DNA of 62,773 bases, counting the filler, from Globobulimina sp. (Eukaryota): the NCBI GenBank assembly GCA_003354225.1. It is 19 parts of 19 records of this genome, joined end to end, with 100 filler letters (N's around TTAATTAATTAA, not from the genome) between each part and the next. Parts side by side here need not be neighbours in the genome. Positions count along the whole stretch, not along the records: positions 1 to 3,212 come from PIVH01003405.1; positions 3,313 to 6,524 come from PIVH01003406.1; positions 6,625 to 9,836 come from PIVH01003407.1; positions 9,937 to 13,147 come from PIVH01003408.1; positions 13,248 to 16,458 come from PIVH01003409.1; positions 16,559 to 19,769 come from PIVH01003410.1; positions 19,870 to 23,079 come from PIVH01003411.1; positions 23,180 to 26,389 come from PIVH01003412.1; 11 more parts are not named here. One strand, written 5' to 3'. A program made the translations under genes and the position numbers. Position 1 is the stretch's first letter; every line of letters begins with the position of its first letter. This document shows, one piece after another, positions 1 to 62,773 of the stretch. The notes under the pieces were generated by a model that did no database searches, had not been told where the DNA came from, and was given only the letters and a program-made list of their open reading frames with translations.

Positions 1-23
1 CTCTCTCTCTCTCTCTCTCTCTC
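1..23 (+). repeat. (CT)n microsatellite at contig edge
   Basis: Directly visible CT dinucleotide run. Confidence 0.9.
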
Positions 24-374
24 GTAGTACAATATTCCATATTTTGCATGATATCTTTGTATGTTATTTGAAATTATGGTATACACAAAAGGCCACGAAA
101 CGAGGGATTTAGGGTTCAATTAAACAATCAAAAAAAGAAAAAGAAAAATATTAAGATGGATCCAACAATGTGCGGAATTAGCTCCTTTGAGATGAGATGG
201 ACGACGACGGCTTTTTTTCTGCGCTGATCGGCAAAATGGTTTTTGGTCAACATTCTTCACAACTTAAGAATCAATCCGTTGACGATCTCCTGCGGTAAGT
301 GGTCGTTTTGGAACCATTGGCCCAACGCCTGTAAGAAGACGTTGCTGTCGCCCAACTTATCGGAAAAAAAAAGC

Positions 375-2390
375 TTAAACAGTTTGAACAAGGCCAAGTG
401 CAATGGTTTGGCCATCTCTTCGTATTGTAATTCTTGACAACTCTTTTAAATTTTGATACGTGTCCAATAAAATAATATCATTTTTATTTTTTAATTTCAC
501 AGTAACAATGGCACATTGATCCGCTTTGATGTGTCGGATATGTTTATGTTTCATTCTATTCTCGATCTGTCCACTTTTCTTATTCAAAATATTATCTATC
601 TTCGAAATATACGCTTCCTTCTCCACCGATTGGGTATGAATAATAATATGATGTCCTTTGCAAATCGGGATTTTTAAGTTTTTCATCGTCACAATTTTGC
701 AAACAAACTTATTGATTAATTTTAGCGGCTCATGCGGCGATGTAATAATGTCACCGACTTTGATTTGATCGAATATCTCGTCGTTGGAATCGCGATGAAT
801 GTCCAATAACAACTGAATATTGTCCCCTTTTATGGCAATGGCATGCTTATATTTCTGCGAATGGTTTTCGATCGAGATCAAATTCTTTATTTTGGTCACT
901 AAGTTCAAGGGCTGAAGCAATATCTGTTGGAAGTTAATGACGCAGCCACTGACTATCTTGCCGCTCACTACAATGCCAACATTCAGCTCCTTGTAAATAT
1001 CGGTGATGGACATACGCAATTTCCCCGACAGCGAATCTCCGAATATCGACGAGGAGCTACGCAGCGAATCAATCACCTCAAACAGCGACAGATTTGTCAG
1101 ATACGTATCATGTTCGTCCTGCTTTTTCCACCATTTTATAACATCATTATCCTTCTCAGCATCAACAATTTGAACGTCGCAGCTCATCAAATTGGCGCCG
1201 GTCAGCCCAGAAACTGGAATAAATATCACATTCCTTTTCTTTTTCTTGTTTGCAAAGCCAATCTCTTTTAAAAACGCTTTGATTTGAACCACAATCATCT
1301 CAAATCTGCGTTTGTCCCATCCACAGCAATCCATTTTGTTCACTGCCACAATGATCTGCTGCACGCCCAACGACTTTGCAATCAGTGCATGTTCGCGGGT
1401 TTGCCCATTGTTTACATCAAAGCCTGTCTCGAAATCGCCTTTTTTGCTGTTAATCACTAAAATCGCAGCATCTGCCTGACTCGCTCCAGAAATCTATAAT
1501 CATTTATTAATAACATATGTAAAGCAAATAGTATAAAGCAATGAGAGCATACCATGTTTGGTATAAAGTCTTTGTGTCCGGGGCTGTCCAACAAAGTGAT
1601 GCATCGATGTTGCGTCTCGAAATAATGGGTGCTGACATCGACAGTGATACCACGCTTTCTTTCCTCTCGGTGGCAGTCTAAGACCCAGGCGAAGGCAAAG
1701 GAGCTCTTCCCAGACTCTGCCGATTGATGCTTGTATTTATGCATTGTTTTGTTAGTAACAATGCCATATTCATACAATAAGCGACCCATTAAAGTGGATT
1801 TACCCGCATCGACGTGACCAATCACCACCAGGTTTATATGCGGCTTTACCTCTGAAAAATGCTTCTTTTTCTTCTTTTTTTTGGCTTTTTTATCGCCGTC
1901 CTTATCATGGTCGACACCCAAATCAATATCGGCTAAGTCTGTGAGGCCAAAGCGAGATTTTATGAGTTCTTCTTTCTGGATTTCGCGCCGTTTGTAGGTC
2001 TGCTCCGATTCAATGCGACAGCCAATAAATTGACGATGGATAATGTTGCTGTCGGACTGTGTTTTTTTCTTTTTTTTTTTCTTGGGTTTATGTGCTTTTT
2101 TAACTGTGGTAGAAATGTATGGATTGGGCTCAATTTTCAGTTCCAATTCTTCTTCGTTTGACTCATTTGCTACGTATACATTTTCATCTTTTTTGACTGG
2201 CTTTTTTGTGTCAAAATGTGTATCGTTGGCATCGCCAAATAATGAGGGTCTGTCAAGAAAAGAAGTGGCTGCATTGGCTGTGTTGTCACTGTTATTGTTA
2301 TTGCTGAATGTGTCGAATATCGATGGTCTGTTGGCTATGTCGGCGGATTTATGGTTGTTTGTAGGTGGTGCGTTTTGTCCATATGTTTTT
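375..2390 (-). CDS. HBS1: HBS1-like translational GTPase (eEF1A/eRF3/Hbs1 family); 5' end unresolved
   Basis: G1 [28 protein letters not shown] and SGLTG motifs. Removing intron 1494-1552 restores [30 protein letters not shown] and [15 protein letters not shown] favour Hbs1. The frame stays open upstream to about 2390 without an ATG. Confidence 0.85.
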
Positions 2391-2547
2391 GATCATAAAT
2401 TGCCTTGCCACAGCACCTTAAAATAACCTTATTATTGAAACTACATTATTTTAAATCAAACTTTTTTAACATTTTATTTATAACCTATTTTCCTTCCGTA
2501 AATTAGTATGTTTATTTTTGCATATTGCCAATTAATTCAAAAAGAAT

Positions 2548-3212: not shown

Positions 3213-3312
3213 NNNNNNNNNNNNNNNNNNNNNNNNNNNNNNNNNNNNNNNNNNNNTTAATTAATTAANNNNNNNNNNNNNNNNNNNNNNNNNNNNNNNN
3301 NNNNNNNNNNNN
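3213..3312. other. Artificial contig spacer (first of 18)
   Basis: N44-TTAATTAATTAA-N44, with stops in all six frames. Copies start at 3213, 6525, 9837, 13148, 16459, 19770, 23080, 26390, 29699, 33008, 36317, 39626, 42934, 46242, 49550, 52856, 56162 and 59468. Contig lengths between them never increase, running from 3212 to 3206 bp. Confidence 0.98.
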
Positions 3313-4505: not shown

Positions 4506-4620
4506 TTCGGAGTGAAAACCCTAGTTCAAACTAAAAAAATACAGTATATTAATATTGGAAACTTTCAGAAACGAAACACGTACACAACATATAAATATAA
4601 ACTGCGCAATTATACTCTCG

Positions 4621-6387
4621 TTATATTTTGCCAACACCACTATGCATCCTTTGCATTTTCTCAAACACACTATTTTCTTGTTTTGCTGATTGTCTTTTAT
4701 CCTTCAATTCCTCCTTACTCATTTTTATCTGCTCCTTCCCTTCGACATCGGCCACTAACTGCAGCAAAATGCATACAAACATAATCACAAATATAACGCC
4801 GTTATTCACAGACAACGCAAACAACGGCGTCACAATCATGATGAGCAACAAAATAATTCGAAATATCCATACTTTGACATGCACATTGTATGGATGTGCA
4901 ATCCGTATCACATTCAATGAAATAATAATAATAACCAAGGCGTAGCCAGGTAATACCACGTCAATATATCGACGTTTTGTGTCTAATAAATGTTTGCCCG
5001 ATATTTTGATCCCCATTCCAAAGCCTAACAAACCAAAAAACAACAATTGATGCGCATGCATATACAATCTAGCTCGGAACGGACTTATTCTATAAATAAT
5101 TAATAACAATAAAAGTCAAACCAGTATTTATAGAATATATAATACATAGTACCTCAATGCATGATTGCCATCGCCATTCATTATGGATTCCTCATTTGGC
5201 TGGCAATCAAAATACAACCTAGCAATACAAAACGACAAAACAAAGGTCAACAACACAAAGGCCACCACTAACTGAGATGGTGCCGACGAACCCAGATTGG
5301 TGCCCATGACAGAGATAATTGACTCGCCCAAAATTATCATTATAAACAGGCCGTACCTTTCAGAGATATGCGGCACATTGATTGGGATTTGAGTCTTGAC
5401 ATGAAACTGCGACACGGGGCAATAAAATGAAAGTGCAAAGCATAAATGTTCCGCAATATTCTCAAATAAAAAGAAGGCCGAATAAATGCTGAAGTAATGA
5501 ATCGAGCATTTGCCGCGAACCAGACTCACGATGGGGAATATCACAGCAATTATGATCACTGATTGAGTAATATGCCAAACCGCATGCCATTTGCCTCTGG
5601 GAATTAGCAAAACTTTCAAAAACATCAAAATAGTCACCATATGCAGCCACTGATAGGAGATCAGAAATGCCCGCTCATACGACTCGTCATCCTGAATAGT
5701 TATCATTTTTTTATAACAGCAATTGTGATTAAGTGTTTTTGTAAAATTACAATGCGCTCACACTAAATAAGCATAAAAACACGTAACTCGAATAAAGATA
5801 CCCATCGCCAATATGGATAACATGAATAACAATCTTAGGCCGTCATCAATGTACTGATTGAATACGAAATGCGTGATATACATTAGTTGTTTTATCCAGG
5901 CATTGGTCAACAAGCCGAACTGCGCAAAACCAGTCAGTAAGAATGAATATTTCCATTCATGCTCGCACGCGGAGCTGCTGGCTAAACGTCTGTGGGCCGC
6001 ATCGCTGGCAATGGACTCTGAAACCTCTGCTGATAGCTGTACGATGCAGGCCACATAGATCAAATCAAAAAATAATTCTACCCAATGGGCGCGCAACTCG
6101 TCAATGCCATCCTCGACATTAAACGTGTCCCAATCCTGCCGTACATAGCCTCGAAATAAGCCACACCATTTCTTTGGGTCGATGCGATAGTGTGCTTTGC
6201 TCTGTAATGCGGTGGATGGCGTATAAGTGCTGCGGGTCTGCACAATTTCTGTTGGTTGTTGGACAGCATTATCACAGCTGGGAGAGGAAGAAGCGGCGGG
6301 ATGGGCAATATCCTCTGAAAATTGTATTGCGTTACTGAGATTGTCAACTGTCTGTTCAGTATTTGCTATTGCGGTGAATTCTGTCAT
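4621..6387 (-). CDS. Low temperature requirement A (LtrA)-family membrane protein, 3 exons
   Basis: Motifs WVELFFDLIYV and HISERYGLFIMIILGES, with multiple TM helices. Introns 5692-5787 and 5090-5152 join the three ORFs in frame. Confidence 0.8.
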
Positions 6388-6624
6388 GGCAGAACTGTGA
6401 AGTAAAGACTAGCGCCTAAATGAGGCAACTGTAAATAACATGCCATCAAAAACTTACTTGCAACGCATGCCGGATTCTTCGGATTCCTTGACCATGACTC
6501 CAAACTAAACTAAACTAAACAAACNNNNNNNNNNNNNNNNNNNNNNNNNNNNNNNNNNNNNNNNNNNNTTAATTAATTAANNNNNNNNNNNNNNNNNNNN
6601 NNNNNNNNNNNNNNNNNNNNNNNN

Positions 6625-7351: not shown

Positions 7352-7519
7352 ATATGTGCGGTATGTAAATAGGTGATATACGGCAAGAGTCGTAAACCAT
7401 GACAGTTAAAAAACCCCTCACTGTAATCTTTTTCATGATGATTAAAAACTAAATCTCAAGCAACAATTAAAACAAAATAACTAAAAATACGTCACAAATA
7501 TCAATCAACATCAGACTTA

Positions 7520-9787
7520 TTATTTACCTCTCGGCGCAAATAAAATCCAACACAATTTCTCAGAAGTCCGCTTACAAAGTTCCACAGATTCCAACACCAT
7601 TTTTGATTGTAACACCTTTCTATATTTCATCTCATTCTCTGTCCGCTTTGCCAACTCTTCAGACTCTCTTCTTTTCCTTTCTGCCTCCAAAATAGCCAAC
7701 TCCTCCACAGATAGTTCGACCACAGGTTCCGGCGACGGCGCTCTCTGTGTATCCCCATCCGAACTGTCCTCATATTCCTCTTCTTCATCTTCCTTCGCTT
7801 CCGGTTTATCCTAAATATATTCCCATCGATCATTCACATTCCACGCACATCAAAATAATACAAACGAATGTGATACCGGAATGGCACTATAATCCACTCC
7901 ATGATTAACATAATAATTACCATCTTTATCAACCGTCGGTGTCCTGTCATCGATGCCATATATCGGCGAATCTGTGACTTGCTTCAACTGAATTTTCGTA
8001 AATTGAGTGTTTGCTTTTTTGTTTGCTTTTTCTTGCCTTCTTCTCGTTTCTTCTTTCATTTGTTGCCTTTTCTGTGCTTCTTCCGTCTGTTTTCGTTTTT
8101 GAATCAGGCCCTTTTCCTTTTCTTTTATCTTAGCCACATATTCGCGTTCTTCCTGCAAAGCTTTTTTGAACGCTTCCTCTGAGAATAACGCATCGCCGCC
8201 ATCCACAATCACCGTATTCTTCACCCTCAAAATCCACTCATTGATGGTCACTTTTTCTTTGCTCTCCACAGTCAATGACAACGTCCACGGTTTCAATAAT
8301 TTTTGCATCTCTCCATTGTAACTCACATGCTTCATTCTCTTATTTCCCTTTTTATATTCATGCGACATCGAATCCGGTGTCCTGCAAACAAATGTTTTCA
8401 GTTTCAAACCATATCCATAAATATATAAAAAAACATATACCACAGAAAATAGACCCAATGACTTCTCCGAAACCTTCCGGAACCAAACGACATTCGCATC
8501 AATCCGTACTGAACCTGGTCATCTTTCAGTTCCTCCCTCAGCACATTCAACGAGCCGTGCCCCCATTTCATAGGTTTTATCTCTTTCTGTGACGGTTTGA
8601 ATAACCCCCAATTCACCGGCGACATTTCAGAGTGAATCGCGGCCAAAACCCGCTGTGCCGTCCACGGCTTATTATCGCTCCAATCATCCTTTTTTTTCCT
8701 GCCTTTCCTACGTTTTTTTTTCTTCAAATCTCGGTTATCTGCATTCGGATTTTCTTGCAATTCTGCTTCTAATCTTTTTCTTTCTTGCTCCAATCTCTCT
8801 TTTTCTTCCCTTTCATGTCGCACATTTCTCTCTTTTTCGGCTTTTCGCTTTTTCTCCGCTTCCATTTCCTTTCTTTTTCTCGCCGTTTCCTGTTTTAATT
8901 GAAGTAATTTCCTCTGCTCTTCTTCCAATGCTTTTGCTTTGGCCTCGCGTTCCAATCTCAATTTTTCTTGAATTAATCGCATCCTTTCTTCCTTTGCATC
9001 GACCGTTGCCTGTTCCATTTGCAATTTATAATTGACTTTCAACTGAATATATACACATAAAATGGCATAAAACCAGAATATGGAAACGTTTCTGTCCATA
9101 TTTTAACTTTACATACAGTGTTTAAATCAGTTTGCTGTCCTTTCCCTTTGTACGCAATGCTGTCGCCTTCAAACACTCGTTTTAACTCAGAAAAGACCCA
9201 TTCGACTGTACATATTGCCCCATTGGGTATAATTAGCGGTGCGTGGGTGTGGCCGATCAGCTTTTTAGCTGCACTCAATTTATTGTTTGCCTTTGCTCGT
9301 TGCAATGGTTTCATTTCTTTGGTGTGTATAATGTGTACAGTTAGTTATAAATAATAGGAATGTGAGAAAATGTGAATATTTAACTGTCGCCTTGGAAGTG
9401 GATGAATATATTTTTATGCCTCGCAAAGGTTCCTTGGCCAATTTGTATTTGCAATAAACCAAAAAACACATTGTTATCATCCAATACTTTGGCCATTTCA
9501 TCAATGCCGGCGATGCCACGTCCAATAATTTGAAACGGTGCGAATGCCATAATCTCTTCGTTTGTGTAAGCTTTCATTTCATTTTCTAAGGTATGTTGGA
9601 ACTGTTGCCCTGCAAATGAGATGGGAATGGATGCCATGCGGTTTTGCAGTTTGATGACGTTTCCATCGTTTCCGGTGGCAAAGAATTTCATTTCTGACTC
9701 TTGATCCAACTCATTGTCATTTATTTCTTTCTCTTCGTCAAATGAGGGCAAGGTTTGGTGTTCCATGCTCTTCACTCTGTGCAACAA
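7520..9787 (-). CDS. Multi-exon protein with two ADF-H (coactosin/drebrin-like) domains and charged coiled coils
   Basis: Domain 1: GIAGIDEMAKVLDDNNVFFGLLQI...KNIFIHFQGD|KMKPLQRAK (intron 9317-9384). Domain 2: GHGSLNVLREELKDDQVQYGLMRM...HWVYFLW|TPD. Further GT-AG introns near 9044-9115, 8382-8440 and 7811-7876. Start and final exon are uncertain. Confidence 0.7.
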
Positions 9788-12933: not shown

Positions 12934-12972
12934 TTAATTGTTAAATAGGTATTAAACTCAGTGACTCGCATC

Positions 12973-14593: not shown

Positions 14594-16055
14594 ATGAACC
14601 GTCAGCGAAACACGTCAAGCAACGTTGGAGATAAAAAGAAACGCAAACCACGCACTGTGAAAAATGCGTACATTGACATATCAAATATCTTAGTCGACTG
14701 TGGCGATGATTATAATAATTGGATCTCAATTGCAAAGGAAAAGTTAAAAGTTAGATATTGTGTACTTGTTTAGTTGCACTTAGATATTCTGTTTTTAATC
14801 GTGTACTTAAATATAATAAATCAATAATAAAGGAGCGCGAATATAAATTATTGGAGATTCGTGCGCAAGCAATTAGGCGCATTGTGAAAGAGAAGAGTTG
14901 CATTCAAAACGGAAACGAAATAATCCCATCGCAGTTTTTTGGAAGTTGTCTTCGAGACTTATATGAATTAATCGACTGTTGGAAAGGTGTCAAATTAAGC
15001 AAATTGTCATCGCACTCTTCGTCAACAGATTCATTTAAAAATTATTTCAGTGTTGCAAAGAATTGGTGGGACCAAAAAAAGAAGAAGAAATATGGTGAAT
15101 TATTTTGGTGCGGTGTGTTTAGTTACATCCAACAGTTCAATCAAAGCAGATATAACAATAATGTCATTAAACAGCGATGTTGCATCTATCAGGTATGAGC
15201 ACAGCAAATAAATGCTATATTCCGCGTCGTTTGATTTAATTCACGATTATTCGGAGTCGGAATAGCATTGAATTGCCGTAATTAATCAACTTAGTGATAA
15301 TTATATATTGTCAGACATTACGTAAATTGTTAGATGGGAAAGTACAATATTCAAAGTTGAGTAACTATACACAACACAACTACGGTAAACACAAAGTTAT
15401 ACACAACACAACATAACGCAATGTACATGGTACCAAGCAACAGCCATTAATACCAATTGGTACACTTAAAAATTGCAAGTATATCAAAGAATATTTGCAT
15501 GATTTGGACCGCCGATTGGATATCGACAAATGGATTCGAACTGATATTATGGAACAACAATTAAATGATAAATTAAGTAATAATAAAAAAACAATCCGGA
15601 CAGGAAATGCCAAACATATTACTGTAAAATTGAAAAATGAGTTAGATGTATTAATAAATAATTGTTTCAATAAATTACATGTTCCAAATAATGAGTCGCT
15701 GAATAAAAGTAAACAGATTTTATGTTTGTGGAACACATTTATGGAGCAACAACAACTCACAAATAACATTCCCATTGTTATACAAAATCAGAATCACAAT
15801 CATGATCCACATAATAGAGTTTATAATAACGGAGTTAGCCAATATAATTATAATTATATTGTGCCAGCAGTTACTACTCCAACAATGCCGATATTTGCAA
15901 GAATTAATAACAATATGAATAATAATAATCATAATAATAATCATAACAATATAAATAATAATAACAGTGTGAATATGAATAATATGTTGTATCAGTATCA
16001 CCCATTTCATTTGGCAAATCAATCTGTATTCCACCGACGGTTTACTCCGTATTAA
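14594..16055 (+). CDS. Hypothetical multi-segment protein with basic NLS-like N-terminus and Asn-rich C-terminus
   Basis: Three successive same-strand ORFs, KKKRKPR near the start and a poly-N tail. Exon joins were not established. Confidence 0.35.
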
Positions 16056-19869: not shown

Positions 19870-22800
19870 TGCTTTCTGTCCATATTGGAGATAAATGTCG
19901 ATTTGAACCACTGGAATTATTTGAATCATTTGAATTCACTGGGAACCAAGGTTTCCCCAATCTACATTCGACATCCCCCTGACCAACACCAACTTCCATT
20001 CCCCGAAGACAGACAGTGCTGTTACTGAAGTCGATATGAGCTTGGTGATATTGTAACCAATCCAGTCCCAAAGTTACAAAAGGCAGTTGTAGATCGTCTT
20101 TGATAATATGGAAGCTTTGTTCGAATTTTACTCCATTCATCATAAATTGCATTCTTGATGATCCAATAATTCGGAACTTTCCACCAAATCCGACAAAATG
20201 GTCATGTTTGCATTTCTTTAAATCCTTCAGTCTGGCTCCGGTCCGTAAATAAACTGATTCCTGAGCCATGCACAATGCTGCACCACAGTCAATAAGAGCT
20301 GCAATTTGACACATTTGTTCTTCCTCCAGGTCACTCAACATTATGATTGGTGTTTCCATTGGTCCCAAAATTAACATTCTTGCATTCATACCATCCTGCC
20401 TAATTGATGTGGCGTCTACTGGTTGTTGACATAAAGTATGGTTTCCCAGTAAATCCTCCGTCTTGGTTGTATAACAATCAGCTTCACAGACATACAAAAC
20501 TGGAGTTTGGAATGGACTAACATCTTTGGACAATGGTGTCTTCATAACTTCCTTTATGTTTGTCTCCTCTACCGATAGTTGCTGCATACTTCTACATATG
20601 GGGGTAGTGTCGTCTGACATATCATCAATGTAGCTTTTCACTGGTTCAATATGTTCAATTGTGAAACCCTTGTCAAATAATGAGCTACGAGGTGTGTCAT
20701 CCTCCCAATTTTCGTTCCAATCATCGTTAATCCATGTCAAATATTTTTGACGCCATTTTGGATAAGGGAAGCCACGGCGACGACTATATTCAACCATACA
20801 TTTATCGTATTCTTCCGATCTCATGTATCGATCCTCGAGTTCTGCATCAGGATCTGTTTCACACATTTGTAAAAATTCTTCGTACGTTACTGATCTGCCA
20901 GTTTGACTGTATCGTTGGATTAACTGATTTAACTGAGAGGGCACATAACAACCCTGATTACCATTCCGAAGGCCACGACACGACACTGGTGACATGGGAG
21001 CCTCGTCTTCTTCTGGCTCTCCTGTATCTGACAAATCAGTGTTCTGATGTTCACAATGGCTTGACCAATGATCTCCACGCTTGCCACAATGTCCACATGC
21101 GTACTGTTCATCTGGTTTCCGAAGGTGCGGTAAATACCCATTTTCTGATAAATTCTCAGTGGCCACTGGTATAGCATTGGCACCTGTTGCTGGTGATTTC
21201 CCTGTGGCAGACACACATCCTGATGGTCGCTTGGGTGTTTCTTGTTGTTGATATGCACCGGGTGTCGCTTGAAGTTCAAAAACAAAATCAGGTTTATTGT
21301 CGGATGGTGAAATACAATTTTTATTATTAACACACGGCACATAATTATTGTTATACACATAATCCACATCACAATGTACATCACCTACTTCAGCGGCTAT
21401 GGTTCCAATATCGTCGATTTGTGGTTCCTCCACTGATTGTATTTTTGTCGAAGTAATTTGACCGGCGAATGTATGAAATCGAGTTTGTGCCGTTCGGGTC
21501 GGTTCGATGGCACGCAAAAATAATGCACGTTGACGAATCTGACGGGCCAATTGTTCCCACGTCGGTTGGTCGATAGTACTAAGGATCTTTTTAACGAATT
21601 CTCGATCGGCGTCATTAAGTTTGCCCAAAAACGTGGCCAATATACGAGCATCTTGCAGCAAAACACGATTGGTCAATGCTTTCGCGCCGTAAACTTGGAC
21701 ATACACAATTTCGAATTCAATTAAAAAATCACACAAAATTTTACTACCCTGTACCAATTCGTTGAGTCGTACGGTACAGGCTGCGGTAACAACGTCCTTG
21801 TTTGCATAAAGGTCGGCCAAATGATCGAAAATAATTTGTGACGTAAGCGCATTTCCATATAATCTTCGCAAATGATGGTAAATTTCGTGCGCCCTTCCTT
21901 CCAAAAACGACGATATGTTTGCCAAAAATAAACCGACATTGCCTTGCGTAGCACAATGATCTTGGCAATTTACGGCCCAGTTTTCGAAATTTTCGGATTC
22001 CGTCCCGTAGAAAATACATTTTGACGGAATTTCGGACGCCCGGAAACGAAGGAAACCATAGGGATTGACATTAACGACCGATTGGCTTTGATTGGCGTTT
22101 ATTGACGATACGACGGCTGAATTTGGCGGTTGAATACGGTTACGATTTTCGACGGCCGGTAAATTTGACGTAACTGAGGGTAAATTAATGACGAACGGGG
22201 GCACGACGGATTTTCCACACAAACCAGAATCAGTTGGAATTTTATCCGCTCCCTCTGACTGTGATTTGTATGTTATTTGCCCTTTTAACTTATTGTCGAT
22301 GTCACAGGGGTCGTATTGGGTAAATTGCGGTTGTATGATACCATAAGAATTTTCTACCGCTATGTTTTGCGTCACATTGTTATAATACCGATTATATTTT
22401 ACCTGTGGTCGATCATCCACACATTCCAATTGGCAATTCTGTTCACTTGGGGCCTTCTTTGACAGGTCCTGTAGCTGGGCTCCGTCTCCGGCCTTCACAA
22501 CTTGCACTGATTGGCCCGTAGGATTTGACTGACTCGGTGGATACTGTAAAAAATCAGGATTATTCATGACACACAAATTATGTTTGAAAATATTTGATTC
22601 TCTTTCTAATTCGACCCTTTTAGCTGCCAAAACCCTTGCTTGTGACTCCTGTTCAACCCTTTCACGTCTTTGTAGTTCCATCTGACAGCTGAGATGTTTA
22701 TCTTCAATTTTGGCTTTATCTATTTTGTTCCTCAGTTCCTGTAGTTGTCGAGCTGTCTCCTCCGGCTGCTGTTGGACTGTTTCCCTTTGAACCTTTAACC

Positions 22801-22954
22801 GCAACGGCGTGATACAAACCATTTGGTCTTGTTTTTCACTACCCTGCTGAAAAGAAATTTCCTCCGGCGGACGAGATGAAAAACCACGGGTCTGCAATGT
22901 ACTGGAACATGACGGGGTACCCGGACAATGATTAGACAAAGCTGCTCCAACCAT
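19870..22954 (-). mobile_element. Ty3/Gypsy-like LTR retrotransposon gag-protease polyprotein (3' truncated)
   Basis: Intronless ORF over 1000 aa with capsid-like FYGTESENFENW, zinc knuckle CGHCGKRGDHWSSHC, and retropepsin motifs ALIDCGA and LGLDWL. Confidence 0.85.
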
Positions 22955-23009
22955 TTCTCGTTAAAAACGATGAAAAATTGAACAATTGATGACGAAAACC
23001 TCCTCCAAG

Positions 23010-23181: not shown

Positions 23182-25470
23182 TTCCCCAGTAATTCACCAA
23201 CCAAATTACCAACAGATGCAGTCACAAGTCAACCAACCAATATTCTAACAACAATTATGACAGATATCCCAAGCACAATTCCAACCGCCTATGCATGCAG
23301 CAATAATGTTACATTTACGTTGCGCACAGGAAGCAGTATATGGTGGCTTGCATTTGTTAAGTGTTTACGTATTGTATATACTCTGTTTTTGTGCAAATAA
23401 TTGCATATTTAGTTTGTTGATGATTTGTGTTGCGGCACGGTTTCAAAAGTAGCAGTTAAAGATCACAGTAATTATCCATCATATATAGGTGGCGTGTTAT
23501 CGTTTGGTTATTTTGCATTTGATCCTGTAACGGGACAGTTCAGCCCTCCGCTTTCAGTGCGCGTTACAAATGGCAACAATCAAGTTATTGAATTCATGGA
23601 TGTACTCCAAAGTGCTGATGCACCGAATACATACTATGGAGATACTAATTTCTGTGTTAAGTTATAATTACATTAATATCATAGAAAAAAACACATATAA
23701 TTTAATATGTACATATGCTACAATTGAAAGGGTCCAACCCCTTCACCAACAGATACAGTCACAAACCAACCAACGACAGATATTCCAACCACAATTCCGA
23801 CCGACGCCGTTACAATGATTCCGACACAAAATCCAGTTACAATGGTTCCAACAAAGAGGCCGATACAAAAACGAAGATGGTATATTTTTCGATGTTTATA
23901 CAATGATGAAAATTCCAATTATTATGCTTTTTATATGACATTATATAAATATGCTGAATTGATGAGAAATGCAACATTTTCGGCAATCGAGTCGATAACA
24001 TTTTATTCGGCAAATTACAATCAAACACAAATTAATCCCCTTTCTGCATGGAAAAAGGGTGGGATTTATAGTTTCAAAATTTGTATAATATTTTCAGATG
24101 TCACAATACCGGATGGCTCCGATGATTGTGCCAATTTAGAATATAATTCAGATGACTCTGACGATGAAAGCAAAGCGGAATTCACTGCAGTTGGTATATT
24201 TGGTATTATTGCTGATGAAGCTTTGAGTGAATACGAACAGTTTTTAATTGATGCTATGATATCAAATAAATTCAAAAAAGAATTTTCAAGACAAATGAAT
24301 TCGGCGCTGAATAGTGCAACAAATGAGAGACGAAGGAATTTATTGGCGAGTAAGTTTCAGACTATTTTGATTCAAGTAATAATACCGCAAAATAACACAA
24401 TTATTAATACCAACTCACCCGCGGATAAGCAGACTATTACAAACAATGTGAGCTCACGGACTGTAATCTTATTATCAATCATTGCAATTTTATTATTAAT
24501 TGTTATTGGAATTGTTTTGTTTATTTACAAAAAGTTTTATAAAATTGATAATGAAAAAGAAGAAGAAGAAATAGAAGAGCTCGAAGAAGAGGAAATAAAT
24601 GAAAAAGTTGAAATGTTAGAAGTAGAACATAATGATTCTGAAATTGTGGAAGCAATGAACAAACCAGCAATGATGGAAGAAAATGTTAATGTCGACGATG
24701 AGATTAATTATAACGTTTTTGTCTGCTGCAATGGTGATAATATTGAAAAATGTCAAATTATTTGTCGATTATTGGGGATAATGATATCATATGAAACATG
24801 GAATGGAATATCAGATGGTGCGACCAAATGGAATTTAATAAAAAGTTTGTTTGAGGATTATGATTTAATGGATTTAATTGATGATTATAATCATTATCTG
24901 TCGGATCACGACAATACAGAAAGTTTGGATTATGTCAGAAAATATATATTGTCAAGAATCCATAATGAATGCAATAAAAAGCATGATATTCAAAATGGAA
25001 GAAAGCATTTAATGGACAGTCAACATTTTGATGTTTCGAGTGAGGATATTTTTAAATTGGAAATGGTGGATAAAATTCATTTGTATTTCTTTCATAAAAA
25101 CAATAGAAAAAAAGAGAAAAGAAAGGAAAAGATTGCTTTGCCACAAACGGGTACATTTGCAATGGTTTTAGGCGAAAATGAGTTGGATAATATACTGGAA
25201 TTGGAGCAGGATGAAAATAAAAATAATTTGTTGGAATTGGAGATAATTAAAGAGATTAATCGGACAGTAATAGGACATGAAGATGATAATTATGATATTG
25301 ATGAAATGGATGTTGCTCATATTGATATTTCAGATATTTTGGATGCTGTAAATAATACACAACTGCAAGATGTTGAAATTGCTGACAATGAAGATATTGT
25401 TTTACCGGCACATGAAACAAACACAATAAAATTAAATGTTGGTGAAATGCATCCACTCTTTTCAATGTAA
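23182..25470 (+). CDS. Type I membrane protein with Pro/Thr stalks and an expansin D2 (CBM63)-like domain; 5' truncated
   Basis: TFTLRTGSSIWWLAF|FVDD...GYFAF...PPLSVRVTNGNNQVI. Introns 23356-23412 and 23656-23730 keep the frame. PT repeats, TM helix VILLSIIAILLLIVIGIVLFIY and an acidic tail. Confidence 0.65.
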
Positions 25471-36316: not shown

Positions 36317-36509
36317 NNNNNNNNNNNNNNNNNNNNNNNNNNNNNNNNNNNNNNNNNNNNTTAATTAATTAANNNNNNNNNNNNNNNNNNNNNNNNNNNN
36401 NNNNNNNNNNNNNNNNGTATGATATTTTATAATAACAATACATTATAATTAATGATAACTATATTGTTACCTATATATTATCATATCTTTATTATATAGG
36501 ATTACTTAG

Positions 36510-39500
36510 GAATTAATTCAATCAGAGAAGAAACATCGATGCATCATCCTTACAACGCATTTTATGGTGTATCGCTCTCTTTGTACTTTATTTATTATAT
36601 TGATTTTAACAGATTAAACATTTTAGGACGAGGCAGATATTTTAGGCGATAGAATTGCAATTATGGCTACAGGTCGAGTTAAATGTTGTGGTACTAATTC
36701 ATTTCTAAAACAATTATATGGTATGTACTGTGTACGTCTTATTTATTTAAGATTTTATGATAATTAACCAATGTGCATTGCAACTAAAGGTGTTGGCTAT
36801 ACTTTGACAGTGTCGTTGGATTTATTGGATGATTTTGATAAAAAAAATGTAAATAATATTAAAACCCATATTGATCAAATTGTATTTGATCATGTTACCA
36901 ACGCAGAGGTTGTAGCACTGTCCGGTGCTGAAATAACATATCGTTTACCATTTGAATCAACACCACAATTCTCGACATTATTTAATTTATTAGATGACAA
37001 TGGAGCTACGTTAAAAATTAAAACATATGGTATTTCTGTAACAGTTAAGTACTGCTTACTCACATATAAAATTACAAATATTTCTGCATGAGCTTATGAA
37101 AAATATACCTATACAGACAATGGAAGAAGTTTTTTTGAAAGTTGGGCACGATGAAATAGAGCCAGCCGCAGTTGCACCTCAACAAGAAACGGGAGAATTG
37201 GAAGAGGAAAAGGAAAAGGAATCTCTACAAGATCAAGATGCGAGTTTTGATTCATTTGAATTACGTTCCATGAATCGTTGTGCAATATTTTTTTATCATA
37301 TTTATGCAATTTTATATAAGCGGAGCATGTGGAATCTAAGAGATAAACAAGCATTGTTTTGTCAATTATTTTGTCCTGTTGTTATTTCGTTTTTTGGTTT
37401 TGGAATCGGAGCAGTTACATTAAGTTTAGTTTCAAATATAAAGGTTTATGAGTTTGCTATCACATTTTGTTCCCTTCACCATATGCATAGATACTTTGAC
37501 TGTGGAACCCGCGATGCCTTTACATCCAACCACTTGGTATCCTTCTTCTGATGATATTTATATACCGACTACAAACCACAATGGATCATTCCCTGAGGAA
37601 GGTAGTCAAGGTACGGATTGGTGGCAAATACCTGGTAATTTCTATCAAGATAATGATGAATTCTACAATATTTGGGACGATTCATATTTTACTGAGAATA
37701 ATGGTGAATTATTAATAAAAAATACAAGCATTGATGTTGATGAATATTTCCATGAAAACAGAACAAATTCGAATGGCTGGTTTTTGAAACCATTCGGTTC
37801 GGTGTATCCATCAACATACGGAGTGACACATAAATTTCAAGACTGGTTATTGGACGAAGGGCGCAGAAATGAACCGATATATATGTCATTTTTTTTTGTG
37901 CCATATTCGATGACTACCAACCAACAAAAGCGTGTTTATTTCGGTATAAATGGGTCAGCATTGCATGGATTACCCATTGCTGTTAATCTATACAATAATT
38001 GGATTGTCAATTATATTTTTGACGAATATTTGGGTGGTGAGGGTCAGGAATCAGTGGCAAATATAAGTGCTACAACACACCCATTGCCACCAACACATAC
38101 ACAGAGTATTATATTACTATATTTTTTAGCATTTCAACAAGCGATATATTTTGTGATTGCATTTAGTTTCATTCCAGCCGGTGCCATATACTTCGTTGTC
38201 AATGAAAAAGAAGCAATGACTAAACATCAACAATTAGTATCTGGAGTGTCATACAGTTCATATTGGATTGCTAATTATATCATGGATGTCTCCATAGGTT
38301 ATCCAGCAATAATTTTAGTGACTTGTGGGGTTTATATATTTCATTCCTTTGTCTTCGAAGATGCGATTGGTTGGTTGATTTCCACATTGGTACTCTTCTT
38401 ATGGTCATCCACACCGTTTTCATATTTATTGTCATTTTTATTTTCCTCGCCATCACAAGCACAGTTTACCACTATTATGCTATATATGGTGTTGGGAATG
38501 GTCATCGGTTTGGTCTGTTTAGGTTTAGAATTAATGTCACCCGAAACACAAGATATTAGTCAAGACATTTTACGTCCAATCTTTAGATTATTTCCACCAT
38601 TTGTTTAGTTTGAATTAAATCTATCATTTCGGCATTTTTCTGTTTGTTTATCTATAAAACCATTTTTGTCAGATATTGTGTGAAAGTTTGATAAATATTG
38701 GACTAAAAATTGTATTATATCCATTTTCTGATTTTGAAGATTGGGAGGTGTTGGGAAGGAATTTTACTTTTATGTTTGTTGAAGGTGTCGGATATTTTAC
38801 GCTGGTCTTAATCATTGAATATTTATCAACATATCCTGTTTTATTAAGAAAATGTGGCTTAATTACAAATATGGCCGCAAAACAAAGAGATGATACTTTA
38901 GATAATGACGTCTGGACAGAAAAACAAAGAATAAAAGATGGTTTAACGCAAATAACATACAAAGAACATGAAGACGAAGCCGAAGTAAGATTAAAAAAAG
39001 ATGCATTAAAGGATGATTCTGTTATTATTGCTGGATTAAGAAAAGTATTTAAACATAGAAGTGGTGGCAATGTAAAAAAATTTGAGGCTGTGAAAGGTTT
39101 ATATTTTGGTGTGAAGCAAAGTGAATGTTTTGGATTCCTAGGAGTTAATTTTACATTGTCTTGAAATTCAAATTGATATATTATATAATTACAAATTATA
39201 CAAAGGTTAACGGAGCAGGAAAAACAACAACATTGTCAACAATGACCGGTGCTCAATATCCATCCACTGGAACAGCATTCATTTGTGGCCATGATATTGT
39301 TCGTCAACAATTAAAATGTCGTCGATACATTGGCTATGTTCCACAGTTTGATGCATTATTTGATTTATTAAATTGTGAAGAACATTTAAAATTTTATGGA
39401 ATGTTAAAAGGACTAAAACAAAATGTTTATAATAAACAAATGGAGATATTATTGAATTCATTGACTTTAAATAAATACAGAAAGAGATTATCGCATACTT

Positions 39501-39625
39501 ATTCTGGTGGCAATAAACGTAAACTCTCGGTTGCTTTGGCGATGATCGGTAATCCGCCCGTAGTATTTTTGGACGAGCCATCGACGGGAATGGATCCGGT
39601 GTCACGTAGAGCAATGTGGACATTT
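36510..39625 (+). CDS. ABCA-subfamily transporter, internal fragment
   Basis: [70 protein letters not shown] and [11 protein letters not shown]. Introns 36567-36626, 36721-36789, 37044-37116, 37424-37490, 38603-38672 and 39144-39205. Confidence 0.92.
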
Positions 39626-43141: not shown

Positions 43142-44354
43142 TTAAAACGTGTGTGGTTTACGACAAATTAAACCTTTCAAAAAATCAAAAGAATTGCCAT
43201 CAGGATGTAATTCAAACGCATCCCCATTTTTATTTTGTCCAAGTAACTGTCCATTATCACTAACACCAATGATAAACATTTCAATTTTATCATTACTATT
43301 ATTATTTATATTTTTTGTTCCTTTCACATCTTTACTAACAATAACTTTTTGTCCAGAATGCATCCAATATTTTAAATATTTTTGCTTGAATGATTCAAAT
43401 CCATTTTGTATTAAATTCTCATAAATTGGTTCGAAAATATTCACAAAATTACTTAATATTTCTTCTTTTGTTAGCTCCATTTCTTTCATGTCTTGTTGTT
43501 TTATAATATCATTAATACAAATTGTTGGATGTTTATTATTTACATTCAATCCAACACCGCAAGTAATAATATATTTCTTTTGTTTCATATCATATATTGA
43601 TTCACATAAAACACCTCTTATCTTTGATTGATTATAATAAATATCGTTTGGCCATTTCAGTTGTAATTTAATTCTATTATTTGTTAAACTTAATATGGTG
43701 TCAACAATTGCTATGGATATTATATATTGCATTGTTGTCAAACATTTAACTTTCTCCTGTTTCATATCTGTGATAAAGGAATACAATAAACATCCTTTTG
43801 GTGACACCCATTGGTTATTGCCTCGACCTCTGCCGTCAGTTTGTTTGTTGCAAACAGTCATTGTTCCATTGGGTAGCAACAAAGCATTACTTTAATTTAT
43901 TATTTTTATCCTTCTTATTCAAGAAATAACAAAATTAAATAGAATCGAAACTCTTTTGTGAATGTTTGAGTGGATTTCATACAATCACTAAAAACAAACG
44001 TTTGTGACAACCATTTTGTTTTTAGCGATGATTTATATGATTCGATATTCCATAATGCATTGTTGTCCTCTTTGCTTTCTGTATTCTGATTTGTGCAATC
44101 ATTTGATTTCTGTTTTATTGACCATTTGATTGCAAATATTGGCTCTATTTATTTGTTCTTTTTTGTTAAAGCAAACACACATTACCAAGAACAGTACCAT
44201 TGTGTTTCAGAGATTTGGTATCAATTTCAACATTGTTATGATGAAATAAATACATGGTCGATGATAGACTGCTAAATACTGATTGTGACATTGCCCACGA
44301 AAATAAGAATGGAGATGAAAACCGAGACAATGATTTGATGCGGAAAGTTTTCAT
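43142..44354 (-). CDS. HLCS: Biotin-protein ligase (holocarboxylase synthetase), 3 exons
   Basis: QTDGRGRGNNQWVSPKG, LKWPNDIY, GVGLNV and ELHPDGNSFDFLKGLI. Introns 44145-44197 and 43890-43951. The Arg/Ser-rich N-terminus resembles a mitochondrial presequence. Confidence 0.9.
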
Positions 44355-50040: not shown

Positions 50041-51501
50041 TCATTGTAATTCCATACGCGCCGATTGACATATTTTAAGTCTACATTTCTTACTACTTTT
50101 CTTTTTACGTGGTCTTAACACAGAAGTTCTATCAATACAAACCCGTTCGGACTGCGAATTCTTTAATTTTAATTTCTTTTTTGTATGTTCACGTTCACGT
50201 TTTCGTTTTCGTCTCGATTCCCGTTTTCGTCTCGATTTCCGTTTTCGTCTCGATTTCCGTTTCCGTTTTCTATATTCCTCATTATCCAGAAACGTAAACC
50301 CATCATTTATGTCCCTATCCTCCTCCTCCTCTTCACCTGTCCCAATCGACGGAAACCTCGTTACAACCGGCTGTAAATGTATCGGTGTAACGGTCACATT
50401 GGAATTTACAGAATAATTTGGCGTTAAATGTGGTATATGCAACCCGTACACATCAGGTAAATCCTCAAAACTCGTACTGGACAATTCAAAAACATCCGTA
50501 ATCTGGCTATGAGTGCCTAAACCACTGCAACTTGTCTTTGTAGGCACCGGTGACCTGTAAGCGACTATGGGTGACAACAAACTGATGGTCAACCCGGCTG
50601 TGCGTAGTATCTTAAATGTGGGTATTATGGCATTCAAGGGACTCATTGCATTGCTCATAAGGTCTGGCAAGCGCGAAGGCCGCGCGGTGGGTAAATCAGT
50701 GAGGATTTGAGGCATACAAAATTTGTGCTCTTCGCGTGGATTATTATCCAAAACGCGACCCAATGGAATGGTGTGTGCGGATTTATTGCGTTTGGTAGGT
50801 TTTAACTGTGTCTTTACCAAACGAAATATGTTATTTTTATCATTGGAACTCCACGAATTACTGTCAATTATGGAGGGGGTATTTAGTATTTTCGAGTGGA
50901 TTTTTTTATTTTTTATGATTTGTTTATTTAATTGTTGCTGTAATTGATGTTGTTTGATGGCATTTGCCTGCACTTTGAAACCTTTCCAGAAGCCTTCAAA
51001 GGACACGGTTAAGGTTTGTTGCGTGTCCATATAATACCAATATTGAGAGATGTATTGATGCGAATAGCCATGTTTGGTTAAATAAAAATAAAATTCTGGC
51101 CATGTTACTGTTGTAATTACGTTTTTTGGCCATGTAAAAATAAAAACGTTTTTTGTGTATACGTAACTTTGACCGTCTCCGTTTTCGTCATATTGCTGGA
51201 AGATTTTGAAAGTATCAATTACAAATTCATAGTCTGCGCGCGAGGAAAGGATTAATTCGAAATCATTGGATTTGATCAAGTTTAAAAAATCATCGAAATG
51301 GACGGTTTTGGAATTGTTTGAGTCTGCGAGCGCAAATAACGCCATTTGTTCGGTTTCATCATTAATGCCAAGATCTTCGAGTGCGTTTCCAAACTCATTT
51401 TCGTTTAAAAGACCATCATTGTCGGTATCGTAGCGTTGGAATATGGATTTTAAAACAATGTTAGGTGTTTCTGGATGGATTGCGGATTTGCTGGTGTGCA
51501 T
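50041..51501 (-). CDS. EF-hand calcium-binding protein with low-complexity, basic C-terminus
   Basis: Loops DTDNDGLLNENE and DSNNSKTVHFDD. Removing the in-frame 60-nt intron 51108-51167 restores DENGDGQITWPE. An 18-nt tandem repeat at about 50204-50270 encodes RKRKSR units. Confidence 0.8.
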   Translation of the reverse strand: MHTSKSAIHPETPNIVLKSIFQRYDTDNDGLLNENEFGNALEDLGINDETEQMALFALADSNNSKTVHFDDFLNLIKSNDFELILSSRADYEFVIDTFKIFQQYDENGDGQSYVYTKNVFIFTWPKNVITTVTWPEFYFYLTKHGYSHQYISQYWYYMDTQQTLTVSFEGFWKGFKVQANAIKQHQLQQQLNKQIIKNKKIHSKILNTPSIIDSNSWSSNDKNNIFRLVKTQLKPTKRNKSAHTIPLGRVLDNNPREEHKFCMPQILTDLPTARPSRLPDLMSNAMSPLNAIIPTFKILRTAGLTISLLSPIVAYRSPVPTKTSCSGLGTHSQITDVFELSSTSFEDLPDVYGLHIPHLTPNYSVNSNVTVTPIHLQPVVTRFPSIGTGEEEEEDRDINDGFTFLDNEEYRKRKRKSRRKRKSRRKRESRRKRKREREHTKKKLKLKNSQSERVCIDRTSVLRPRKKKSSKKCRLKICQSARMELQ

Positions 51502-59467: not shown

Positions 59468-59567
59468 NNNNNNNNNNNNNNNNNNNNNNNNNNNNNNNNN
59501 NNNNNNNNNNNTTAATTAATTAANNNNNNNNNNNNNNNNNNNNNNNNNNNNNNNNNNNNNNNNNNNN

Positions 59568-60669
59568 CATATATTTTCCAATCATTAACATCAATTAAAA
59601 GCAATCGATTCTTATCCTCCTCATCCATAAAATGGAAAGTTATTATGCCACCAAATGAAACTACATGCTTCAAATTATTTATCTGAAATCGATACGGTAA
59701 TATCATATCTTCCCGTTTGCATTCTATTGCTCCATCGGCATCCATACCATATATATAACGGCGTATATGGTCAAAATAAATATATTTATCCAAATGTAGA
59801 TTATACCTCATCGGTATTTCTTGTGTATACTCATGCGATGACACAACAGATTCAATGCGCTCAAATGTGTTTGCATTTTCATCATATAGCAACATTGAAT
59901 AATGCTGATCTCTTAAAACTTCTTTTATATATAATTTATTTCCTAATATCATAGATATAAAATCACTGTGTTGAAGATTTGGATATTGCACATTCCATTC
60001 GCCACTTTTACATTTAATACGATATGAACTGTCCTCTAAATTGTAAACTGAAAAACATTTGTTTCCACGATCAGTGCATAAAATATATAAATCTCCGTTT
60101 GTTGGGTTTATATTAAATAAAATATTATGTATTTCAAAAGGTAATGGGAATAAAAATGTTATTTTATTTGCTTTTATGTCGTATTTATAAATTAAACTTA
60201 AAAAATCACTTTGCTCTTCGTTTGCGTTGCTATAATTATCAACAGATACCATTGCTATAATAATCACATATTCATTGCATGATGTTTTTGAATAATAATA
60301 CAAATATTTACTTTTGTTATAAAATGAATCAATCGATGGTGGTTTTGTGATTGCGTTCCAATCTGCGATGGACATTTCATATCGAATCTTATTCCGCCGA
60401 GTGGGTAAATTTGAGGATAGCTGTTTTGTATATTTATGTAATGATTGTACTCTTAAACTCTTTGCATCGATTCATTCATCTTCGTCACTATCAATTTCTG
60501 AATCGTAACGTATTTTAATTGCATCCTCTTTGGCTTCAACAACAGTGGCAATATGCCACGATTCATAGATTTTTTCATCATCATCCCCAACATATCGAAC
60601 ATCCAATTTACTCCCAACAACTAAGGATATTTTTTCAGATAATGAGATATTTTGCTCAATTTCATCCAT
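59568..60669 (-). pseudogene. Tudor/Agenet-like plus beta-propeller-like protein with one in-frame TGA
   Basis: ORFs 60472-60675 and 59512-60375 share a frame and are separated only by TGA 60472-60474: VGSKLDVR...WHIATV...IRYD...DEDE*IDAKSLRV. Confidence 0.55.
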
Positions 60670-60723
60670 TGCCAAGTACGTAGTTAAAACTGTGGACTCA
60701 ACTGCCTCTATATATCATAGACA

Positions 60724-61967
60724 ATGTCTTCGGTCAAAGAACAAAAGATGTTGTTACTTATATGGCACAGCGTATGCATTTTTATCTGCACAGTAATTTT
60801 AATTTATGCGTTATTCTACATCGTCTTTCGTCGATATGTTATGACCACAATGACAAAATCAGCGGTGAGATATTCTATAATTGGTGTATTGTTATTTATT
60901 CTCACGTTAGTTTCCAGTTTAAATTACATCATTGCATTAGAAAGACAATTGAACAGAGATGAAATACATTATTACGTTACGAATTCAATATGGACTGCGG
61001 CTCATATTTTCACATATCTATTATTTGTAAATCGTTTGGAACATTCAGTGATTGCAACAAAATATAAAATCACAAAAAGGATTAAGTTAGTTTTTAAAAT
61101 AGGTTTAATGACATGGGCCATCTTTGAAACTCTGGTGGTATTAAATCAAGCTGCTGCGTCAACAAATTATTATTCATATCATACCTATCACCTTTCCAGT
61201 TTAATATTATTATTTGCCATTCAAATGGTTGATTTATTGCTTTCCATCTATTTGATTTTATTATTTTTAAGGTATATCATTTATTAATATGTATATTGAA
61301 TATTCCATACATTTTTGACAGGAATTTATATAAAATTGCGTTTGATGAAAAAATTAACATTTCTTCAATTGACGATGATTCCAATTTAGACGTCTTGGAG
61401 ATGTATGATGAAGATATTGTGAATGAAGTGATTGAAATATCAAATAAAGGATCGCAAGAATCGGTTTCCGGCTCATCGAGTACGGCAAACACAGTTAACA
61501 CTAACACCCAAACTGACTATTTGTTACTGTCAGAAACAAATAATGCTTTTACAAACTCTTTGTTGACTCGGAATTCGTTGCATAATCAACATATGCTATT
61601 AAATTGGGGCACAAAATATTGCATGTTATTTGTTACTGCGATGATATCGACACAACTAAGTTTATTGTATAGTTTATTATGGATTGCTATTAACTTTTGG
61701 CTCAGACAGAATCTGTTTGATAGTACAATGACATTGGCATCGCAGTATATATGGTCATTGAATATGTTGATAAATTGCTATGTTATTTATTTGGATTTTG
61801 ATTTTGCGATTCATTCTTATAATTGTTGTTGTGGTGAATGTCATAAAGTATGTCGGATTTGTTGTATTTTTTGTGCGAGAAGAAAGGTAATTTGGATGAC
61901 ATATAGAGTTTGGGGCGCAAAACCATCACAGAAATGGCATGATAACGAGAATATGAGTGGACTCTGA
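60724..61967 (+). CDS. Seven-TM (GPCR-like) membrane protein
   Basis: Five hydrophobic helices, intron 61272-61321, a long acidic loop, two more helices, then a Cys-rich tail. Confidence 0.65.
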
Positions 61968-62773
61968 GAATTATATACATGATAATATTTAATATTTCGT
62001 ATAGAAGAGTGTTTACAAACTTGTACTTGTTTTGCTGATAAATCACGACATTAAAACAGATTTTTCAGTGAAAACCACTTCAAAGCATGCGAGACAGATT
62101 CAACAAATCACACATATATCAAAGAATAAACTCCCACCAATCAGAAGATCAGCAACCAAGCACGACACACAAGCTGATACTAAATTGTTTCATGTTTATC
62201 TTCATATCAATCTGTCTCATCATATCACTATGCATCATGTCATACGTTTTCGAAAACAACATATCTGACACAATATCACATGCAAAATCATTAATGTCAA
62301 CAAATATCAATAAGTATCTCAATGGAAACAAACAACTGCCATATTGCAAAACCATTCCATTCGATGCATACAGAAACATGTCCAATGTTACATATTACAA
62401 CAACTTTCCAGCACATACGACAATTGAAGAAATCATGAAAAAGCGAACACAGTCAATACAAGACATCCCGATATGTGCTACTGCCAACAAAACAAACTAT
62501 GACCAATACACTGAAATACTCTCAAAACTGCCAAACAATCTCATCGCATATACCAACAGATGTCAAATAAACGCAATAAACCGTGGCAGCCGGCAATTCG
62601 GAGGCTTGTTAAGTGGCGACCCACTTAAACCAAAACATTCCACACAAATCGGTTTTCTTCACGTGTACAAAGCAGGTTTTTGTTTTCTACGCATTTTCTC
62701 AGTTACTCTGCTAACAATGTCTCCACTTTTAATCAGGAGGCACCACAGTACGAGACACAATGAACAGTATTCT

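Follow-up and report, generated by a model that had tools for sequence, protein, structure and literature searches.

The GTRAGT consensus at the 5' splice site (donor) is typical of U2-type introns, although it is not obligatory. For human donors, pairing with the U1 small nuclear RNA (snRNA) in a shifted register, across one-base bulges and across asymmetric loops has been described (PMC4856993; review PMC9311317). In the first of these sources, the shifted-register test sequence was ACA/GUCAAGUAU, the loop and bulge tests were CAG/GUUUAGUAU and CAG/GUAUUGUAU, and the non-canonical registers validated so far account for a combined 1.5% of the sites in man (PMC4856993). In Entamoeba, GUUUGU(U) is reported to start 88-90% of introns together with a U1 changed to ACAAAC, and a U1 candidate from Mastigamoeba pairs GUACGU, whereby the G is kept at +5 as in Entamoeba (10.1101/2022.06.08.495308). 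Foraminiferal introns have been characterized in the literature searched as canonical GT-AG and short, with a mean of 87 bp in Reticulomyxa. Here, we analyzed a stretch of 62,773 nucleotides (nt) from the foraminifer Globobulimina sp. (assembly GCA_003354225.1), referred to as the window, for the donor sites of its introns, and found that about half of the introns sampled begin with GTT. These introns represent a real second donor class, in which the conserved G/U is located one base deeper in the intron.

The window consists of 19 separate contigs of 3,206-3,212 bases each, arranged by decreasing length, with a G+C content of 27-42%, which are separated by spacers of the form N44-TTAATTAATTAA-N44 (e.g. 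3213-3312, then every ~3.3 kb). Since the contigs are artificially joined, the order of neighboring genes is uninformative. In a first-pass annotation about 26 introns had been placed by hand, 11 of which were listed as GTT introns and taken to represent a mainstream shifted donor class on at least seven independent contigs, for which a relaxed or variant U1/U6 recognition had been proposed. All 11 heptamers are present at the coordinates and on the strands given below, they are distributed over seven contigs (numbers 2, 3, 8, 11, 12, 14, and 16), and 8 of them fit the motif GTTWMGT, as had been proposed. Furthermore, all 11 obtained independent support as genuine intron starts, eight of them to the base, whereby removal of the introns restores the reading frame and the homologous protein, as judged from homologs, profiles, and one motif.

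The first line of evidence came from a comparison with public sequencing runs, which covered contig 12, where four of the 11 GTT donors are located. The DNA-like run X1 is colinear with contig 12 and keeps the introns. The contigs of X5, X6, and X7, which belong to three other studies with two other organism labels and are 90-100% alike to contig 12, leave out six segments of contig 12, each of them with GT..AG borders. These segments start at 37044 (GTTAAGT), 37424 (GTTTAGT), 38603 (GTTTAGT), 39144 (GTTAATT), 36567 (GTGTAT), and 36721 (GTATGT), and thus four of the six begin with GTT. X5 and X7 lack all six, X6 lacks one of them as well, and X1 retains every one. Within the ABCA-type transporter gene, the 73-nt intron 37044-37116 (+; donor aca/GTTAAGTAC, acceptor ATACAG) is skipped by the joint 37043>37117 with GT..AG borders in X5 and X7, and X1 is colinear here. 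The 67-nt intron 37424-37490 (+; donor taa/GTTTAGTTT, acceptor GCATAG) is skipped by the GT..AG joint 37423>37491 in X5 (side 232) and X7 (side 255), and the 70-nt intron 38603-38672 (+; donor ttt/GTTTAGTTT, acceptor TGTCAG) by the GT..AG joint 38602>38673 in X5, X6, and X7. None of these three joints shows positional ambiguity. The 62-nt intron 39144-39205 (+; donor gga/GTTAATTTT, acceptor ACAAAG) splits the Walker A sequence FLG/VNGAGK, a junction already named in the first-pass annotation, and its joint 39143>39206 is present in the spliced contigs of X5 and X7; here, five letters can be assigned to either side of the joint, whereby a single cut yields GT..AG. Because six GT..AG introns are lost exactly, we infer that X5, X6, and X7 are derived from RNA. 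The X7 contigs, which carry a different organism label and are 90-99% alike to the window at 36417-39625, lack these six introns with identical borders, and five of the six, among them the four GTT introns, are skipped with the same borders in X5. Thus, at least one related strain or species also makes use of the GTT junctions. Two further joints, 36666>36789 (CT..AA) and 36666>36936 (CT..TA), have letters between their sides and go back to source records that match 21-42 bases only; they were not counted as introns.

Four further GTT donors were fixed to the base by homologous proteins. In the beta'-COP gene, the 66-nt intron 35756-35821 (-; donor cat/GTTTAGTAC, acceptor TAATAG) interrupts GHTH/YVMQ, and tblastn with P0001 and P0002 leaves a gap of exactly 22 codons, which confirms the HTH/YVM junction suggested beforehand. 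For the 57-nt intron 23356-23412 (+; donor ttt/GTTAAGTGT, acceptor ATTTAG), WWLAF directly adjoins FVDDLCCG in the homolog P0185, corresponding to a 19-codon gap. The 62-nt intron 43890-43951 (-; donor aga/GTTTCGATT, acceptor TTAAAG) belongs to a biotin-protein ligase gene, and P0122, P0125, P0126, and P0127 run unbroken over ...STQTFTK-x-NAL... at this position. The 68-nt intron 9317-9384 (-; donor aca/GTTAAATAT, acceptor CCAAAG) lies in a gene for an ADF-H-like domain protein (HFQGD-K-MK); residues 7-130 of P0186 align to 9386 and residues 132-199 from 9314, and the split codon AAA encodes K, which is residue 131. P0186 itself has no interruption at the position of this intron. The remaining three donors have weaker support, namely a homolog end point, an EF-hand loop, and the continuity of a Pfam profile. 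For the 75-nt intron 23656-23730 (+; donor tgt/GTTAAGTTA, acceptor TGAAAG), the P0185 alignment stops at ...YYGDTNFC (23655) and the frame meets a stop three codons on; the donor is the best one in a parse that is blind to the donor motif (margin 5.0). The 60-nt intron 51108-51167 (-; donor aaa/GTTACGTAT, acceptor CAACAG) is in frame and free of stop codons. It is located within an EF-hand loop, and, judged by the motif, its removal at the DGQ/ITWPE junction, as put forward in the first-pass annotation, restores the canonical 12-residue loop DENGDGQ-I-TWPEF, whereas with read-through loop positions 8 and 12 would be S and T, respectively. For the 96-nt intron 5692-5787 (-; donor cga/GTTACGTGT, acceptor ATTCAG) in the gene of an LtrA-like membrane protein, positions 1-82 of the Pfam profile LtrA match the upstream exon and positions 90-237 match from five residues into the downstream exon; this donor is again the motif-blind best, with a margin of 1.0.

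In order to avoid a motif-driven choice of donors, the motif-blind parser relied solely on the GT and AG dinucleotides, the reading frame, codon usage, and the base composition of introns. The parser recovered the known donor at six of eight independently known introns, and its pairwise version did so in five out of five testable cases. On its own it chose the listed donors 5787, 9384, 23356, 23656, and 43951. A rule that takes the shortest intron was dropped, since for 37044 and 37424 it selected an incorrect acceptor or donor. For the donor statistics, the parser contributed 19 introns from sense genes with a length of up to 130 nt. Parser introns longer than 130 nt, a call at 506 that would cut a Pfam domain, and antisense parses, which represent noise, were left out before counting.

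The statistics of the donor sites revealed that the GTT class has a sequence signature of its own. Among the 11 verified GTT donors, +6 is G in nine and +6/+7 is GT in eight, whereas +5 is never G; together with the T at +3, which is given by definition, the class thus departs from the usual consensus with a purine at +3 and G at +5. A GT at +6/+7 follows only 127 of the 2,269 GTT sites of the window (5.6%), which yields P = 1.4e-8 for the 8/11 donors. The second part of the signature is found in the exon. The last exon base (-1) of the verified GTT donors is A in seven cases and T in four, and G in none of the 11, compared to five of the six other verified donors (Fisher p = 0.00097). When the motif-blind calls are included, the difference becomes 0/18 versus 13/18 (Fisher p = 7.4e-6). 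The combined set of 36 donors splits into 18 GTT, 17 GTA, and one GTG site, so that G or C at +3 occurs once in 36 donors, compared to 39% of the background GTN sites. The share of GTT was 11/26 in the earlier hand placement; it is 4/6 among the contig-12 introns defined by spliced contigs, and 5/8 on the two contigs where all introns are independently fixed. With half of the 36 donors, and with +6G and +5G as counted above, the claim of a mainstream displaced class holds for the window, while its extension to the whole organism rests on 62 kb. Further copies of GTTTAGT or GTTAAGT are found where coding frames end or close to such points, among others at 14768, 17277, 17366, 25524, and 48725, and the TAG of the heptamer at 14768 is the stop of its frame. 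These copies might be additional donors which the parser misplaced or missed. Three head-to-tail GTTTA units at 6504-6520 (-), at the end of contig 2, account for three of the 28 GTTWMGT matches of the window and are not donors.

Overall, the window contains short GT-AG spliceosomal introns with two kinds of donors, and from the borders, the motif, and the covariation we suggest, with moderate confidence, that the second kind is read by U1 one position out of register. Class 1 donors are of the familiar type, in which a G at -1 precedes GUAUGU or GUAAGU and +5 is G. Class 2 donors, about half of all, read GUU[A/U][A/C]GU; their conserved G-U has moved from +5/+6 to +6/+7, +5 is never G, and the last exon base is A or U, never G. 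Class 2 looks like class 1 (A-G/G-U-A-A-G-U) after a change of the first intron G to U and a shift of the cut by one base towards the exon, which keeps the GU start. In fact, aca/GUUAAGUAC is identical to the classical CAG/GUAAGUA with the first intron G changed to U and the cut placed one base earlier. The 5' end of U1 is predicted to pair with class 2 out of register, namely C9 with +1G, A7 to A3 with +3U to +7U, and U10 with -1A, and later factors (U6, U5, Prp8) would still cut before the GU. Since +1G replaces -1G opposite U1 in this shifted register, a lack of -1G and a preference for A at this position would be predicted, and the absence of -1G from all 18 GTT donors and the frequent A in the verified ones agree with this expectation. 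A shifted register is favored over a bulged one because a bulged U on the normal register would keep the -1G. When donors were folded with a standard U1 5' end, GTTAAGT-type sites folded in the shifted register and GTA sites in the normal one; the best shifted fold, at 37044, has nine pairs including C9:G+1 and U10:A-1 (-7.3 kcal/mol).

There are several points that weigh against this interpretation. The sample is small, comprising 17 independently supported introns and 19 introns called by the parser only, all from 62 kb. Only six of the 11 GTT sites fold best in the shifted register with the standard U1, one folds with an asymmetric loop (35821), and four with neither, whereby the U1 of the organism may differ; the energies are weak, ranging from -0.2 to -7.3 kcal/mol. 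No U1, U6, or other snRNA gene was found in the window (Rfam: no hit at gathering scores, and three weak microRNA or small nucleolar RNA look-alikes at E up to 1), and therefore the mechanism is inferred. The seven parser-only GTT donors differ from the verified ones, as they have +5G in four cases and +6G with +7T in one; it might be that the GTT class is mixed, with GTTTGTAT occurring twice, or that some of the parser calls are wrong. X5, X6, and X7 are not recorded as RNA, so that their RNA origin is deduced from the exact intron loss, and among the runs that matched in the public-run search none is on record as RNA. Finally, +3T is not above the AT-rich background, as GTT accounts for 2,269 of the 6,072 GTN sites in the window (37%), and GTTWMGT is not enriched window-wide, with the 28 matches facing 25.05 +/- 4.06 expected ones. 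The last two points would fit a simpler explanation, according to which there is no special class at all and +3 is free in a very AT-rich genome, with the rest of GTTWMGT being due to chance or composition, since the share of GTT among all GTN sites is near the 42-50% among donors. However, such freedom at +3 would account neither for the excess of GT at +6/+7 and the missing +5G nor for the missing -1G, and as it is already contradicted within the sample we regard it as very improbable. Even less credit can be given to the idea that the introns were misplaced by hand and that nearby GTA sites are the true donors. It is true that near-equal alternative GT sites exist, such as 5801 for 5787 (margin 1.0) and 9107 for 9116 (margin 0.1), but misplacement is refuted for eight of the 11 donors by four exact spliced joints and four codon-exact homolog gaps.

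A more serious alternative is that U1 itself has co-evolved, or that a second U1 exists, whose changed 5' end, for example with an extra base in the ACUUAC box, pairs GUUAAGU or GUUUAGU in its own normal register. Precedents for this have been reported, as U1 of Entamoeba carries ACAAAC for GUUUGU, the Mastigamoeba candidate ACGUAC for GUACGU, and in Physarum standard U1 candidates occur next to modified ones (10.1101/2022.06.08.495308). Moreover, class 2 pairs weakly with a standard U1, and two sharply distinct donor classes exist side by side. A single changed U1, however, could not serve both classes, since class 1 (GUAUGU, GUAAGU, with -1G) fits the standard U1, and no snRNA sequence was found in the window that would back a changed 5' end. 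We therefore consider a co-evolved or second U1 possible but doubtful. A combined version, in which the major spliceosome routinely uses two registers with two U1 species, one of them with a lengthened or altered 5' box for GUU[A/U][A/C]GU, and in which flexibility of U6/U5 sets the cleavage position one base ahead of the paired stretch, is a speculative proposal that we rate as unlikely. If true, it would constitute a natural dual-register system and show how the choice of the cleavage site is made independently of U1 pairing. The U12-type introns of the minor spliceosome have [AG]TATCCTT as their donor motif, and none of the 17 supported donors carries a minor-type start. Thus, although a survey lists 2.1% "minor-like" introns for the foraminifer Reticulomyxa filosa, an assignment of the GTT introns to this type is practically out of the question, the more so as the same survey found no minor-spliceosome snRNA genes in Rhizaria (PMC11347168). 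Of these possibilities, we prefer a reading of class 2 by U1 in the shifted register.

For comparison, six introns with other donors were established independently. Two of them are located on contig 12 and are skipped in X5 and X7, namely the 60-nt intron 36567-36626 (+; donor atg/GTGTATCGC, joint 36565>36626) and the 69-nt intron 36721-36789 (+; donor atg/GTATGTACT, joint 36719>36789), whereby GT..AG is obtained in both cases with the cut one place rightward. The 84-nt intron 36172-36255 (-; donor aag/GTATTGTGA, with +6G after GTA) corresponds to a 28-codon gap at DIHPK/EPWIL relative to P0001 and P0002, into which a single GT..AG pair fits. In the translation-GTPase gene, the 59-nt intron 1494-1552 (-; donor atg/GTATGCTCT) separates positions 1-88 of the Pfam profile GTP_EFTU in the upstream frame from positions 88-177 in the downstream frame, with a motif-blind margin of 10.9. 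For the 74-nt intron 9043-9116 (-; donor act/GTATGTAAA), P0206 continues into the next exon, and the alternative donor 9107 scores alike. P0186 ends here with ...DINSVC followed by unrelated residues, an apparent read into a GT.TG. donor where the window has a GTATGT intron (9111-9116, -), and from this sequence the intron position at 9116 may be shared with a relative. For the 59-nt intron 8382-8440 (-; donor gtg/GTATATGTT), the alignments of P0197 and P0199 reach ...FLW at 8440, and splicing leads to W-TPDS; the alternative donor 8434 lies within 0.3 score units.

All 17 supported introns start with GT and end with AG. They are 57-96 nt long, with a mean of 68 nt and 24% G+C. Their acceptors are TAG in six cases, CAG in six, and AAG in five (36789, 39205, 43890, 9317, and 23730). 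The acceptors are also relaxed, with AAG being about as frequent as TAG or CAG. An A at acceptor position -3 is uncommon in most eukaryotes. Two of the introns contain or adjoin repeats. The EF-hand intron (51108-51167, -) repeats the opening bases of the next exon (ACATGGCCA) and contains AAAAAACGT twice, and the intron at 39144 (39144-39211, +) is bounded by the 5-base direct repeat GTTAA. Such repeats might have been left behind when the introns arose through a local duplication or an insertion.

Regarding gene content, Pfam matches identified the ABCA-type transporter, biotin-protein ligase, EF-hand, LtrA-like, and translation-GTPase genes mentioned above as well as an acetyl-CoA transporter, an SF1 helicase, and a retroelement. 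The longest conserved frame is that of beta'-COP, whose closest proteins are P0001 from EukProt (71% identity) and a protein from a transcriptome labeled Ammonia sp. (P0002; 74%); tblastn identities are 75% and 73%, respectively, and the remaining matches are far below these two, which identifies the source as a foraminiferan or a near relative of this group. A scan with the beta'-COP frame also led to 38 loci on metagenome contigs. Seven of the 38 were inspected and showed at most ~70% identity over short segments of 27-34 residues only and a G+C content of 45-62%, and they were rejected as not being from foraminifera. The contig with the highest G+C content (42%) carries an intron-free open frame of 1,030 residues at 19871-22960 (-) with a weak match to retrotransposon gag (E = 0.0014), which is probably a retroelement.

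What is known about exact cutting under out-of-register U1 binding comes solely from engineered minigenes and a few rare sites in man. A free-living eukaryote with about half of its introns on a signal displaced by one base, together with a clean covariation of the last exon base, would allow this to be examined naturally and on a large scale, which is of interest for research on splice-site recognition and intron evolution. It would add Rhizaria/Foraminifera to the few lineages (Entamoeba, Mastigamoeba) whose donors have departed from GUAAGU. There is also a practical aspect, as foraminiferal genomes are fragmentary and their annotation is mostly automatic, and where such donors are used, gene prediction with models trained on GTRAGT will get roughly every second exon border wrong. 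With 62 kb as its base, the finding still needs genome-wide confirmation.

In the literature searched, no account of foraminiferal donor composition was met, whereby an earlier description may exist, e.g. in the Reticulomyxa genome paper or its supplements; a literature search on the heptamers themselves yielded primers only. Among the known systems, the human shifted-register sites (Roca & Krainer 2009, as described by Tan et al. 2016) share with the GTT donors the start with GU plus pyrimidine, the G-U at +6/+7, and A instead of G as the last exon base (PMC4856993), and the sites 37044 (aca/GTTAAGTAC), 9384 (aca/GTTAAAT), and 51167 (aaa/GTTACGT) are similar to the human ACA/GUCAAGUAU. In contrast, such sites are rare in man, whereas they make up about half of the introns sampled here. 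The human sites with asymmetric loop 1 (+3/+4, +4/+5) and with a bulge at +2/+3 (Tan et al. 2016; Roca et al. 2012), represented by GUUUAGUAU and GUAUUGUAU, are identical in their intron parts to GTTTAGT (35821, 37424, 38603) and GTATTGT (36255) of the window. However, the human loop and bulge sites keep the -1G (CAG/...), which none of the 18 GTT donors has, and therefore pairing in the normal register with an added bulge or loop is disfavored for most of them.

Entamoeba resembles the window in that U at +3 is the norm across the lineage and U is preferred at +7 (10.1101/2022.06.08.495308), but it differs by G at +5, a single motif, and intron-poor genomes, as opposed to G at +6 and two coexisting classes. 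Accordingly, an Entamoeba-type start (+3U, +4U, +5G, +6U) is found in none of the 11 verified GTT donors, while two of the seven parser-only GTT donors come close to it (ttt/GTTTGTAT at 31016 and 18963). The GUAUGU-type donors of yeasts, Giardia, Trichomonas, and Physarum are similar to the other class of the window, which mostly consists of GTATG with -1G (GTATG at 36721, 1552, 9116, 32030, 42073, 55929, and 58730). This GTATG class is ordinary and serves as an internal control. What sets the window apart from both the human and the Entamoeba cases is that ordinary donors and donors with a displaced G occur side by side at roughly the same frequency.

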